IMG/VR virus record: IMGVR_UViG_3300022752_000089
Coordinates: 1-54,532 of that record
DNA: 54,532 nucleotides
From: a virus
Taxonomy: Duplodnaviria; Caudoviricetes
Strand: one strand, 5' to 3'
Below, one piece after another: positions 2,435-54,532 of this stretch (its first letter is position 1; each line of letters opens with the position of its first letter). The notes beneath the pieces are model-generated. The model was not told the DNA's origin. It made no database searches and saw only the letters and a list, made by a program, of their open reading frames with translations. Both the position numbers and the translations under genes were made by a program.

Positions 2435-2578
2435 TCAATGTTTTGTGTACCACCATACAAATGATAGTACCATAATTACTGCAATCAATCCAAAAGCCAA
2501 ATAATATAGAAAAAACTTCAGTAGGCCTATTACATCAAATACCCATTCCAAAAATGTGTATTCTTTTTCTTTTTTCAT
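2435..2578 (-). CDS. 47-aa membrane protein (not in ORF track)
   Basis: MKKEKEYTFLEWVFDVIGLLKFFLYYLAFGLIAVIMVLSFVWWYTKH; ATGA overlap with the upstream minus-strand gene. Confidence 0.7.
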   Translation of the reverse strand: MKKEKEYTFLEWVFDVIGLLKFFLYYLAFGLIAVIMVLSFVWWYTKH

Positions 2579-3396
2579 TTTGGTGTTATTAGTTCTTTAT
2601 TATTTTCGTATGCTTTTTCATCTAAATATTGGATGGCTTTTCTAATCTTTTCAGCTTCATATCTTTTTTGCTTTACTAGTTCTTCTCGGTAAGTTCTATC
2701 TTTCCATCTTTCTTGTTTGTCTAGATATAACCAGTACCAAAATATACCTAAAAAAATACATATAATCAACGCTGCTATAGCTAATCCAAATTCTAATTTA
2801 TATGTTTCAATTCTGTCAGTTCTTTTTTTGACTCTATCTTCTTCCTCTTTCATTTGTTTAGCAATAAGAACTTTTTGTTGAACACCCAACTCTTTAGTCA
2901 TTTCTTCAACTTCAGTAAATAAGGCACCAAGTTCTGGTGGACTTTGATATATCATCAATTCACGGAGTTCTGTACCCATTTGTTCTAATTGTTTTTTCAT
3001 TAGAACCCGTTTCAAAGCTCGTTTAGCTAAACTATCACCTCCAGAATATACTTCAGTTTTACTACGTTTTTCTTCTTCTTCTAAAACTGCTATACACTTA
3101 AAATAATTATCATAGTATTGACCAAGATAATCACCAATATCTGCATAGATATTAATAGTATCTTCACTCTTTTTATTCAATTCAACCACACGAGCTTTTT
3201 CTTCCACTAACTGTTTCTTTGCTGCGGGAGTTGCTGGTTTATCTGGTGGGTGTGCCTTGTGGAACTGGTCGTCCAAATCCTTGAGGACTGCTTTCACATC
3301 CCCAGCGGCACCTTTGATATCTTTATATAACTGACAACCTTTTTTCACAGCGGCAACTGCACCGTTGGCCAAGGCAAAGAGTGTGAACGGATCCAT
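2575..3396 (-). CDS. helical/coiled-coil protein with one transmembrane helix
   Basis: 273-aa ORF, amphipathic N-terminus MDPFTLFALANGAV, TM FGLAIAALIICIFLGIFWYWLY. Confidence 0.8.
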   Translation of the reverse strand: MDPFTLFALANGAVAAVKKGCQLYKDIKGAAGDVKAVLKDLDDQFHKAHPPDKPATPAAKKQLVEEKARVVELNKKSEDTINIYADIGDYLGQYYDNYFKCIAVLEEEEKRSKTEVYSGGDSLAKRALKRVLMKKQLEQMGTELRELMIYQSPPELGALFTEVEEMTKELGVQQKVLIAKQMKEEEDRVKKRTDRIETYKLEFGLAIAALIICIFLGIFWYWLYLDKQERWKDRTYREELVKQKRYEAEKIRKAIQYLDEKAYENNKELITPK

Positions 3397-51995: not shown

Positions 51996-52198
51996 GAGTT
52001 ACCTATCCTTTTCTTGCGGCACTCCGAAAAAACGAGATGGACCATCATTACCTAAAGTGGTCACAGAACAGAATGAATTATGTTGACCATCTGCACAGAA
52101 AAGGTGACCATTTCAAATCGGATATGATTGCTCTGTACAACAAACGTGGTGACCTAAAACGGTATCAGGACAGGACAACTATTGACATTTTTCTTTGA
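51992..52198 (+). CDS. hypothetical protein
   Basis: ATGA-coupled ORF. Confidence 0.6.
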   Translation: MRVTYPFLAALRKNEMDHHYLKWSQNRMNYVDHLHRKGDHFKSDMIALYNKRGDLKRYQDRTTIDIFL

Positions 52199-52210
52199 AT
52201 GTAATATAAT
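52182..52210 (+). promoter_or_regulatory. sigma70 promoter
   Basis: TTGACA-17 nt-TATAAT, followed by SD AGGAG. Confidence 0.8.
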
Positions 52211-52232
52211 TTCGTTATAGGAGAGAATTATA

Positions 52233-52442
52233 ATGTCTGAAGAAACACAATACAAATACGAAGGCCAGTATTCGTCTGGAGGAACATTCTCAATAGCCAA
52301 CAACTGGCCAAAACCAGTGGGTTATTGGGTATTATATCCAGGAGCTTTTCGTACATCATTTGCCATGTATAAGAAACCTCATAGAATACAGATTTGGTTT
52401 ACAGAGAAACTGTTAGGATGGAAGTGGGAGGATGCAAAATGA
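52233..52442 (+). CDS. hypothetical protein
   Basis: Promoter and SD upstream; LLGWKW C-terminal motif. Confidence 0.75.
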   Translation: MSEETQYKYEGQYSSGGTFSIANNWPKPVGYWVLYPGAFRTSFAMYKKPHRIQIWFTEKLLGWKWEDAK

Positions 52443-52663
52443 AATATTACAGAATATCTTTTGAAGGTGAATGTGGCCAGCATGTAGAAGAAACGTGGTC
52501 AGAGAAACAAATCCTTGGATCATCATGGTATCGCAATTGGGTATTGATGATGGTACAGGCGGACAAAGCCTTTTTGATGGCTGATGAAACAGCCATTGAT
52601 GACTGGTGTGTTGTACATTGGGCTGTAGAGGTAGAGAAACCCGATTGGATTGATGAAAAGTGA
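52439..52663 (+). CDS. hypothetical protein
   Basis: ATGA-coupled; IDDWCVVHWA motif. Confidence 0.75.
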   Translation: MKYYRISFEGECGQHVEETWSEKQILGSSWYRNWVLMMVQADKAFLMADETAIDDWCVVHWAVEVEKPDWIDEK

Positions 52664-52749
52664 ATTTTTCTCTTGGAGCCACCTGAAAAAAATTTTGAAT
52701 CCTTGGGAACCGGCCGAGAAAATAAAAAATAGGAAAAAAGAGTTTGACC

Positions 52750-52803
52750 TGGTGGGGCTTTTTATATAAACACATACCACCACCCCACCAACCCCACCAC
52801 CAA
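52750..52803. repeat. CCACC / GGTGG repeat with an inverted copy
   Basis: TGGTGGGG at 52750 is complementary to CCCCACCA at 52783 and 52792, within ACCACCACCCCACCAACCCCACCACCAA. Confidence 0.7.
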
Positions 52804-52821
52804 CTGCTCTCCCACTGAGCC

Positions 52822-52855
52822 AAAAAAAAAGACCGAGAGCACAGCTCAATCGGTC
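52822..52855 (-). terminator. intrinsic terminator of the minus-strand early transcript
   Basis: GACCGA-TT-GAGC-TGT-GCTC-TCGGTC hairpin followed by T9 on the minus strand. Confidence 0.8.
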
Positions 52856-52897
52856 CGAAAGCAGCACGGTTTTCAGTGCCATACCTGTCCTGTCAAA

Positions 52898-53548
52898 TTA
52901 TGCGGCAACCGCCTGTAATTTAATAACCTTGGCCATTTTGCGGCCGTGAGCAATATATGCCACAACCGGCACATCCTTAGAATAACAAGCACGGCAGCCA
53001 GAGCACTTGCCGCCATTATCGGGTGCCGTACAAGCAACCACACCAGCAGGCAGAGGCATACCAGCAGGCACAATGGTACTGCCATGCACACCAGCAGTAT
53101 AGGTGCCATCCACGGCATCGCTACTACGGCGGACCATGACATTCGGCAGAGCCTCCATTTGAGCCAGTATGGACTCAAATTTAGCAAATTTATACATACG
53201 GGTCGGTAACCAGTGCTTGGTGTTAGGTGTAGCCACCATGACAGCGTACATTTTAACAGCAAGGGAAAGCGAGTACATATCGCCGCTGTCAAACCAACGG
53301 AAGAAGCGTTGCTTGGAGAGAGCGCTTACCATGGTGTCAACCCAGCCAGCTTCCTGCCATGCAGCTTTATTGTCAGCGCGGACTGCTTTTGTGCCTTTGA
53401 AGGAGTAGCAGCCGGTGGTAGCGTAGCAACCAGAGCAAGCATCCACAAGCACGCCGGAGGCAGAGAGCGATCCGGGGCAAGTCTCCAACGCTTGCAGAGA
53501 CCAGCTCAGAATATTATCGAGCTTGCTGGTTTTTGATAATTTATTCAT
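52898..53548 (-). CDS. Gp88-family Cys-rich (Fe-S/radical SAM-like) protein
   Basis: TCPGS...ACSGCYA, FRWFDSGD, HWLPTR, C-terminal C...CSGCRAC. Confidence 0.82.
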   Translation of the reverse strand: MNKLSKTSKLDNILSWSLQALETCPGSLSASGVLVDACSGCYATTGCYSFKGTKAVRADNKAAWQEAGWVDTMVSALSKQRFFRWFDSGDMYSLSLAVKMYAVMVATPNTKHWLPTRMYKFAKFESILAQMEALPNVMVRRSSDAVDGTYTAGVHGSTIVPAGMPLPAGVVACTAPDNGGKCSGCRACYSKDVPVVAYIAHGRKMAKVIKLQAVAA

Positions 53549-53623
53549 TTTGCTTTCCTTTTTTGATTTGATGGAAGGAGTATATCATTCCTGGTTAAAA
53601 TGGCAACTGTAAACTTTTTTCTT
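53549..53623 (-). promoter_or_regulatory. early promoter cassette, copy 1
   Basis: AAGAAAAAAGTTTACAG-TTGCCA-16 nt-TATACT, leader TCCATCAAATC, SD AAGGA. Confidence 0.8.
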
Positions 53624-53754
53624 CAAGCAAGCAACTGGAGTATTCTCTGAGCCGCTACGTGTACACCATGCACGGTTTCGCTTGCCAAAGCCAGCACAAT
53701 TGTATTATAATATGCGCCCACTAAAGCTCCAACCACAAAAAAGACTACTTTCAT
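53623..53754 (-). CDS. 43-aa membrane micro-protein
   Basis: MKVVFFVVGALVGAYY..., SD AGGA; the longer track start would run through the structured RNA. Confidence 0.55.
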   Translation of the reverse strand: MKVVFFVVGALVGAYYNTIVLALASETVHGVHVAAQRILQLLA

Positions 53755-53790
53755 TCTAATTCCTAAAATGTTAACTTCTGTTTTCAATTT

Positions 53791-53898
53791 GCCAGTGATT
53801 TTCCAACTGGCGGCCTCGGGGATCCGATCCCTCTGCCTTACATCCGGACGCCGGTGTTCCTCACCGGCTGGAGCTGTGTTCCTCACAGCATTCGGATG
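53791..53898 (-). ncRNA. structured RNA with four GGA-loop hairpins
   Basis: GCTGTG-AGGAA-CACAGC, GCCGGTG-AGGAA-CACCGGC (both closed by CATCCG/CGGATG), GGGA-TCGGA-TCCC, GCCAGT-TGGAAAATC-ACTGGC. Confidence 0.65.
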
Positions 53899-53900
53899 GT

Positions 53901-54242
53901 TTAAATTGTGGAAACGCCTGCCTTGATTTTAGCAGCAAGGTCATTCGCTTCAGCACCAAAGGTCACGCCCTTGGAAGGACGCTTGTTTGCTTTCACTGCT
54001 TTGGAACCCACAGGACCCACGCTTTTAGCGAGCAGCTTCTCCAAGCGAGCTTGTGCCTTAGCAATTGCGGCTTCACGCTTTGCAGTGGCAGCGGCACGCT
54101 TCGCTTCGGCAGCGGCAATTTTATTTGCCTGTGCCTGCTCACGGTCAACGATAAGCGAAGCACGGAGAGCAGCAATAGCAGCACGCTTTTGGTTTGTGGT
54201 CAAGCCGTTAACTGAAGCGCAGGGGAAGGTGTAATTTGACAT
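53901..54242 (-). CDS. Ala/Lys-rich early protein
   Basis: ATG 54242 follows the promoter cassette and SD AAGGA; long basic helix. Confidence 0.75.
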   Translation of the reverse strand: MSNYTFPCASVNGLTTNQKRAAIAALRASLIVDREQAQANKIAAAEAKRAAATAKREAAIAKAQARLEKLLAKSVGPVGSKAVKANKRPSKGVTFGAEANDLAAKIKAGVSTI

Positions 54243-54316
54243 TTTGTTTCCTTTTCGATTTGATGGACAAAGTATACTGGATTTTGGTGGTTTTGGCAAC
54301 TGTAAACTTTTTTCTT
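54243..54316 (-). promoter_or_regulatory. early promoter cassette, copy 2
   Basis: Same 23-nt AAGAAAAAAGTTTACAGTTGCCA, 17 nt, TATACT, same TCCATCAAATC leader. Confidence 0.8.
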
Positions 54317-54332
54317 CCAGTTGCCTGTGTGG

Positions 54333-54532
54333 TTATTCTACTTGGTCAAGGTGAGCAGCAGAATCCAAATAATCGGAGTCTGTAGTACTTTTGTTTTCAA
54401 GCATTTCCGATAGAATGAATTTAGCAATATTCAATTGCTTGCGGATGGTTACAGGCATTCCGTTTGATTTACCAGCGGGAAGCAATTCCTGGCAGTCCGA
54501 TAAAATACCCATTACAACCATTTCCAGACCGG
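54333..54532 (-). CDS. hypothetical protein, probably 5'-truncated by the window edge
   Basis: Frame open to the window end; GILSDCQE...RKQLNIAKFIL. Confidence 0.65.
   Translation of the reverse strand, partial: GLEMVVMGILSDCQELLPAGKSNGMPVTIRKQLNIAKFILSEMLENKSTTDSDYLDSAAHLDQVE

Follow-up and report, generated by a model that had tools for sequence, protein, structure and literature searches.

Many freshwater T4-like phages carry a structured RNA that belongs to no family in Rfam 15. The RNA lies on the minus strand of the window, by which we mean the whole stretch of DNA analysed (54,532 nt; an IMG/VR phage contig with an estimated completeness of 27%), and had been described in an earlier note as four GGA-loop hairpins resembling a sponge for the translational regulator CsrA. 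Compared across the family, the extra GGA loops are lineage-specific substitutions and not a designed array of CsrA sites. In our estimate the chances are about even that the element is a stable non-coding RNA of small size, which is cut out of early or tRNA transcripts and acts through its fold, probably with a protein partner.

The RNA element and its surroundings in the window

Folding of the minus strand from 53898 to 53791 gave a minimum free energy (MFE) of -47.1 kcal/mol, compared with a mean of -34.2 kcal/mol (sd 3.9) for shuffled sequences (z -3.35), and 2 of 200 shuffles reached an MFE as low. The fold and closing helix drawn in the earlier note were recovered at the same positions of this strand, together with two hairpins, H1 and H2, that present the same GUG-AGGAA-CAC apex on different stems. 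Exact copies of this 11-nt apex, GUGAGGAACAC, occur in the 54.5-kb window only in H1 and H2, with the two AGGAA loops 22 nt apart. Two further GGA-loop hairpins had been proposed; H4 indeed carries the triplet in its loop (UGGAAAAUC), but in H3 the GGA spans a CGG triloop and the 3' stem and is not a loop motif. That the element is more than a chance fold follows from covariation at the level of the family, presented below. The features of the element and its surroundings are listed here.

53785..53906, minus strand: whole RNA element, the sole copy in the window (114.6 bits with the covariance model R1)
53841..53898, minus strand: 5' module, a three-way junction in which helix P1 encloses H1 and H2 (fold and family alignment)
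53898-53893 (CAUCCG) paired with 53846-53841 (CGGAUG), minus strand: closing helix P1 (fold)
53873..53889, minus strand: hairpin H1, with pentaloop AGGAA (53883-53879), an invariant closing G-C pair and a covarying stem
53850..53868, minus strand: hairpin H2, with loop AGGAA (53861-53857), a lineage-specific swap for the YCAA tetraloop of the family
53812..53837, minus strand: hairpin H3, with a 3-bp outer helix, an internal loop, a GGGA/UCCC inner helix and a variable apex
53791..53811, minus strand: hairpin H4, with a 6-bp fully covarying stem and a 9-nt A-rich loop
53901..54242, minus strand: upstream gene of 113 aa, rich in Ala and Lys, its stop codon 2 nt before P1
53623..53754, minus strand: downstream hydrophobic ORF of 43 aa with its own Shine-Dalgarno (SD) sequence, AGGAA
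54271..54299, minus strand: sigma70-like early promoter TTGCCA-17-TATACT of the unit containing the RNA
53579..53606, minus strand: second copy of the promoter cassette, 3' of the RNA, driving a GP88-like gene
52851-52831, minus strand: terminator of the transcription unit of the RNA, about 1 kb downstream

The element is intergenic, as had been claimed, being placed between the 113-aa gene and the 43-aa ORF. It had also been said to lie just downstream of an early promoter; it does belong to an early unit, but the nearest upstream sigma70-like promoter is some 370 nt away, with the 113-aa gene in between. No family was found for this gene in Pfam, PHROGs or a protein atlas. The two promoter cassettes (53579-53619 and 54271-54312, minus strand) have in common an 18-mer, identical in both, that lies 5' of TTGCCA-N16/17-TATACT, and their leaders are similar; this repetition is reminiscent of the promoter/stem-loop cassettes (PeSLs) of T4-like phages. 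A search for terminator-like sites within 53785-53906 returned none, H4 being followed by AAAU with no U tract. Ribosome-binding sites of the phage read AAGGAA.

The GC content of the element is 56%. That of the window is mostly 30-37%, rising to 45.5% in the minus-strand early region (52001-54532), and related complete genomes have a mean of 36-39%. The window also contains 14 tRNA genes at 63-2432 on the plus strand, while the RNA lies at 53.8 kb on the minus strand. The split family-B DNA polymerase of the window is closest to gp43 of T4-like cyanophages (53-56% identity), matches of its ribonucleotide reductase (RNR) and GP88-like proteins point to various proteobacterial and Pelagibacter phages, and psbA was found in none of five phage records. 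Freshwater and lake metagenome DNA runs from 10 studies, one of which may be where it came from, contain the window stretch, with no RNA run listed among the 24 sequencing runs that do so.

A scan of 53000-54532 against Rfam 15 at E<=10 gave no family match, with nothing at gathering thresholds, and four related loci scanned at E<=0.1 returned tRNAs and chance matches only. A DNA search of GenBank phages found no match, and no description of the RNA was found in a full-text literature search.

A conserved fold with a single family-wide GGA loop

The search started from relatives of both flanking genes, among whose listed matches the same RNA was already visible with different stems. Pattern scans anchored in H3 or H4 covered viral contigs, species-representative genomes and metagenome contigs, and the scan results were screened with R1, a covariance model of 127 positions and 36 pairs. 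Since every copy was retrieved through an H3 or H4 anchor, the conservation of these two hairpins is overstated. Alignment to R1 yielded at least 68 distinct full-length copies, besides shorter forms, from freshwater phage and metagenome contigs; at least 27 distinct full-length copies come from viral contigs. R1 was run on 100 of at least 120 metagenome loci (L407-L426 lying outside this set) and matched all 100, in 85 cases at full-length scores.

The double-apex pattern was found at three loci in viral contigs, one of which (L082) is a chance match in unrelated sequence, and a 19-mer scan of the genome collection gave four matches, of which L198 and L199 are due to chance, with only 20 nt matching. 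The other two are true copies of the RNA with phage-type promoters, on a 3.3-kb contig in a Bacteroidia bin (L200) and on an 8.9-kb contig in a Ca. Planktophila bin (L201). These are likely binning artefacts, in which phage contigs were placed in bins of different phyla, and we do not take them as evidence of the host.

Support for the fold is strong across the 68 copies. The paired cells amount to 96.3%, versus 32-38% for partners displaced by 1-3 columns; 24 of the 36 pairs change on both sides, and none of 500 shuffles reaches the observed covariation score, the pair counts leaning towards the model because the alignment was fitted to R1. RNAalifold applied to a plain MAFFT alignment of 17 copies returned the same six helices, with 33 pairs, 18 of them showing compensatory changes. 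The covariation among relatives that the earlier note had named as a check is thus present. G-U wobbles occur on the gene strand only and would be A-C on the opposite strand, which places the RNA on the gene strand, here the minus strand, as originally proposed. Taken together, compensatory changes in the stems, conserved loops and strand-specific G-U pairs indicate selection on an RNA.

The same evidence bears on two readings that would dispense with an RNA function, namely a DNA-level recombination cassette of the PeSL type and a protein-coding role for an 87-aa ORF that spans the region in the window. The flanking early promoter is repeated, with its 18-mer identical at two sites as in PeSLs, and would suit the former. 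However, the RNA is single-copy and PeSLs are multi-copy simple stem-loops, and a DNA cassette would account for neither the compensatory changes and conserved loops nor the strand-specific wobbles. As to coding, the homologous frame is interrupted by one or more stop codons in 21 of 27 relatives, and the length of the element varies from 122 to 130 nt by differences that are not multiples of 3; on this comparison the 87-aa ORF is not conserved. Either reading seems to us scarcely credible.

The anatomy of the family, in 5' to 3' order and as taken from the alignment of 68 copies, is as follows.

P1: about 8 bp, often with one bulge
H1: 7-bp covarying stem with an invariant G-C pair closing a pentaloop
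H1-H2 junction: about 9 nt, ACCACAAAR
H2: 7-bp stem with a G-YCAA-C tetraloop
Linker after the 3' strand of P1: UGUAAG
H3: 3-bp outer helix; internal loop with 5' ARA opposite 3' NGAG, tandem G-A-like; invariant GGGA/UCCC; free apex
H4: six fully covarying pairs and the loop UGNAAAAUU
Tail 3' of H4: usually AAAU

In the window lineage the H1-H2 junction is UCCA, shorter than in the family. The 3' module (H3 and H4) can also be found without the 5' module, immediately behind a stop codon or a promoter, at L002, L025, L028, L101, L128, L159, L160, L164 and L200 and in about 12 metagenome matches.

Conservation differs markedly from loop to loop. The H1 loop reads GAGGAAC in 62 of the 68 copies, the others being GAGCAAC (3), GAGAAAC (2) and GAAGCAC (1). 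That of H2 is GYCAAC in 60 copies and GAGGAAC in just 3, which comprise the window lineage and L207. For H4, UGAAAAAUU was found in 54 copies and UGGAAAAUY in 14, and the variable N is G only in those 14. The H3 apex takes the forms CGG, CGA, CGU, CGC, CAA and GAAA, in a region biased by the anchors used. All three conserved loops terminate in AA, and the variable N of the H4 G-N-A-A recalls GNRA-type loops; these two features would suit tertiary packing or protein contacts rather than CsrA capture.

Judged on the aligned copies, the set of four GGA-loop hairpins is therefore a quirk of the window lineage and not a feature of the family. This bears directly on the sponge of the CsrB/Rsm type, or alternatively the mimic of the SD sequence, that the earlier note had put forward, in which the hairpins would use their GGA loops to sequester a translational regulator of the host that binds GGA, or else the 30S subunit. 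Some observations do favour it: 62 of the 68 copies have an AGGAA loop with a closing G-C pair in H1, the window itself has two identical AGGAA apexes in close succession, one 20-nt hairpin aligns to the CsrB repeat in Rfam, and AAGGAA is the ribosome-binding site of the phage. Yet only one of the four GGA loops is family-wide; those of H2 (3/68) and H4 (14/68) are rare, that of H3 is variable, and even H1 lacks GGA in six copies, in three variants. The CsrB alignment covers just those 20 nt and reaches 9.2 bits (E 8.2), where the gathering score is 71, a 3' terminator is absent, and the 3' module occurring alone carries no conserved GGA loop. As a decoy for the ribosome, AGGAA matches the complement of the standard anti-SD over only 4 nt.

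The CsrA family PF02599 was likewise absent from the five phage records, the control search having found it in 3 of 14 known genomes. It was also absent from the two metagenome bins with L200 and L201, although bins are weak evidence. Altogether, the multi-GGA sponge did not survive comparison with relatives, and we regard either version of this reading as very improbable. A GGA-reading protein of the host may still bind H1. More generally, GGA loops repeated within one sequence are a poor predictor of a CsrA sponge, as comparison with the family removed three of four.

Three further candidates were discarded. RegB, the GGA-cutting nuclease of T4 according to the available part of a 2010 review (PMC3014915), had been considered as an enzyme for which the RNA might be a substrate, and its Pfam family was absent from nine phage records and detected in the T4 control. 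A T-box-like reading, with GGA as a Gly codon and UGGA in H4, was dropped with UGGA present in 14 of 68 copies and no T-box match in Rfam. Loop-loop pairing between H2 and H4 proved, on inspection, to be inconsistent across lineages.

Genomic contexts and possible modes of action

R1 detected one copy in each of five related phage records, including three with a completeness of 95% or more (158-180 kb), and gave no match in five of five other related records, three of them 100% complete (168-175 kb). With one copy or none per related genome, the RNA is an accessory single-copy element. Its surroundings were tabulated for 36 loci, which are viral contigs only, among the matches listed. In 22 of these a homologue of the 113-aa gene ends at the 5' edge of the RNA. 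Of the 36 loci, 12 have a promoter-like site upstream, at a distance of up to 160 nt, and 11 have one downstream; at least 11 have a ribosome-binding site and an ORF of at least 25 aa within 25 nt downstream. The downstream ORFs differ among relatives and fall into a number of small-protein families that are not related to one another.

Among the matches listed, the RNA lies within a tRNA array in 19 of 122 distinct contexts, in the same orientation as the tRNA genes. Most often tRNA-Cys precedes it by about 100 nt and tRNA-Glu follows at 25-400 nt, and in some cases the RNA has a promoter of its own in between. Placement thus varies among the 113-aa gene, promoter-like sites and tRNA arrays and is independent of context. 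A boxA-like decamer, UGUUCUUUAA or UGUUCGUUAA, was seen in 6 of 111 contexts, within about 50 nt 3' of H4 and in tRNA arrays without exception, against a background of 0.017 per 128 nt. It follows H4 directly in L159, L207 and L313 and lies about 35 nt downstream in L205, L218 and L223, in each case between the RNA and the next tRNA gene.

Other elements were observed at the same sites. In L007 and L180 an intrinsic-terminator hairpin stands between the upstream gene and the RNA. Hairpins of this sort (L007:2430-2480, L010 and L180) have a C-rich stem and a U tract inside an inverted repeat, CCAAU...AAUUGG, and are found after the 113-aa gene either in place of the RNA (L010, L011) or before it (L007, L180), resembling another shuffled cassette. 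A second candidate structured RNA directly follows H4 in one lineage (L213:8478-8592; also L222, L292, L323, L325, L337, L349, L354, L364 and L368). It has a closing helix of about 19 bp, compensatory changes in 5 of 28 predicted pairs and an invariant interior, stops 2-4 nt short of the ribosome-binding site of various small genes, a riboswitch-like placement, and has no match in Rfam.

In the reading that we prefer, the element is a non-coding RNA of about 120 nt and six helices, which freshwater T4-like phages carry as an accessory cassette in single copy. It has two modules, a 5' three-way junction (P1, H1 and H2) and a pair of 3' hairpins (H3 and H4) able to stand alone. Host RNA polymerase would transcribe it from early sigma70-type promoters, either its own or that of the preceding gene, and host RNases would cut it out of longer transcripts, early ones or those of tRNA operons, to leave a small stable RNA. 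The RNA would then work through a defined tertiary fold, in which invariant unpaired nucleotides may either pack the fold or contact a protein partner. Four stretches are candidates: GAGGAAC in the H1 loop, ACCACAAAR in the H1-H2 junction, the H3 internal loop with its arrangement like tandem G-A pairs, and the A-rich H4 loop of GNAA-like form. The comparison establishes the family with its fold, strand, copy number, contexts and conserved loops, whereas processing to a stable RNA, a role in trans and the protein partner are the steps that we infer.

Some observations weigh against a stable RNA. The terminator ahead of the RNA in L007 and L180 would limit transcription into it. In at least 11 of the 36 loci a start codon with its ribosome-binding site comes no more than 25 nt after the RNA, an arrangement that would fit a cis-acting leader too. 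Comparison of gene content between three complete genomes with the RNA and three without it produced one weak partner candidate only. This is a 273-aa coiled-coil protein with a C-terminal hydrophobic segment, encoded at 2575-3396 on the minus strand beside the tRNA cluster (family range 258-273 aa), which has a counterpart of 26% identity in one genome with the RNA and a partial match in one genome without it.

An element acting in cis on the early or tRNA transcript, either in processive antitermination through a modified RNA polymerase, as with put and nut, or as a processing or stability signal, would agree with the position of the RNA directly behind promoters or behind the opening gene of a unit, and ahead of long untranslated tRNA arrays. 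The put RNA consists of two adjacent hairpins, as do H3 and H4 together, and the boxA-like decamer found 3' of H4 (in 6 of 111 contexts) would be a further point of agreement. Against this, there is one copy per genome despite many early units, the unit in the window ends at a terminator only about 1 kb downstream, and the RNA may follow a terminator (L007, L180) or be followed by a new promoter (11 of 36 loci). The boxA-like sequence is missing from most contexts, and a simple stabiliser would not need conserved loops. We consider a cis-acting role unlikely, though clearly less so than the remaining alternatives to a stable RNA.

A new riboswitch aptamer or self-cleaving ribozyme, which we judge to be improbable, would explain a multi-helix junction with covarying stems and highly conserved junction and loop nucleotides. 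The context-independent placement, including sites near tRNAs, is shared with many phage ribozymes, and in at least 11 of 36 loci the RNA lies 5-25 nt before a ribosome-binding site. For a riboswitch, however, the RNA lacks an expression platform and has no stretch complementary to the SD sequence that follows, and the genes that follow are mutually unrelated or are replaced by promoters and tRNAs. Occurrence of the 3' module on its own argues against a single catalytic core, and no ribozyme or riboswitch of Rfam was matched.

Significance and relation to known systems

Returning to the small stable RNA, its wider meaning can be put tentatively. It is possible, though on balance doubtful, that the family represents a new class of phage small RNA, a compact single-copy cassette moving between the early region and tRNA arrays, which acts on a host protein, as its decoy or scaffold, while infection is still at an early stage, or else embodies a new ribozyme or aptamer fold. 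Targets of such a decoy or scaffold would be, for example, a regulator that reads GGA or A-rich loops, or a defence ribonuclease. Should it prove to be a decoy, it would count as the first RNA sponge from a lytic phage of the T4 type and would offer a functional answer for the small stable RNAs in phage tRNA clusters. The available part of the 2010 review (PMC3014915) records no functionally characterised riboswitch or trans-acting regulatory RNA from T4. The family is in addition a tractable case, with more than 100 natural variants, a defined six-helix fold, invariant nucleotides to mutate, natural half-size forms, and natural presence or absence in otherwise similar complete genomes.

Among known regulatory RNAs, CsrB, RsmY and RsmZ (Rfam clan CL00106) share with the lake-phage RNA an A(N)GGA in a hairpin loop. 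Those sponges, however, have many conserved GGA sites and a terminator, whereas the phage RNA has one conserved, non-invariant loop, and they have no counterpart of its three-way junction, GA internal loop or A-rich loop. The element also differs from an intrinsic terminator in lacking a G+C-rich hairpin with a U tract.

The RNAs rnaC and rnaD of T4 (species 1 and 2) are likewise non-coding, 119-139 nt long and located among tRNA genes on the same strand, as the lake-phage RNA is in the 19 of 122 contexts that are tRNA arrays; the copy in the window differs in lying behind an early gene, outside the tRNA cluster. T4 rnaC ends in a tRNA-like T arm and acceptor, which the lake-phage RNA does not. 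Across the T4 tRNA region, with filters off, the best R1 hit reached 5.7 bits (E 0.41) and fell on neither rnaC nor rnaD; the resemblance is one of position alone, which counts against the stable-RNA reading. In our own folding, rnaC (L427:1909-2047) folds strongly, with a z of -4.57, and has at its end a hairpin like a canonical T arm together with a helix resembling an acceptor, and rnaD folds no better than its shuffles (z -0.83). The roles of these two small stable RNAs are given as unknown in the available part of the same review (PMC3014915).

The PeSLs, described in the available part of their report as multi-copy promoter/stem-loop cassettes of T4-like phages (PMC4122927), resemble the element in being intergenic in the early region, beside repeated sigma70-like promoters and within a hyperplastic region of varying neighbours. 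A PeSL is nevertheless a simple terminator stem-loop present in many copies, whereas the lake-phage RNA has six helices and occurs once, with only the promoter repeated.

HK022 put and lambda nut, compared by description, share adjacent hairpins after an early promoter or first gene and A-rich purine loops, and a boxA-like sequence follows the RNA in a few relatives. In contrast to them, the lake-phage RNA is single-copy, often stands after a terminator or before a new promoter, and has no N-like protein identified with it. A parallel in source and in kind of evidence is the catalogue of candidate structured RNAs drawn from IMG/VR, which in its available part holds 8,495 unnamed candidates with no function assigned (PMC10690425), and among which the lake-phage RNA may already be included.
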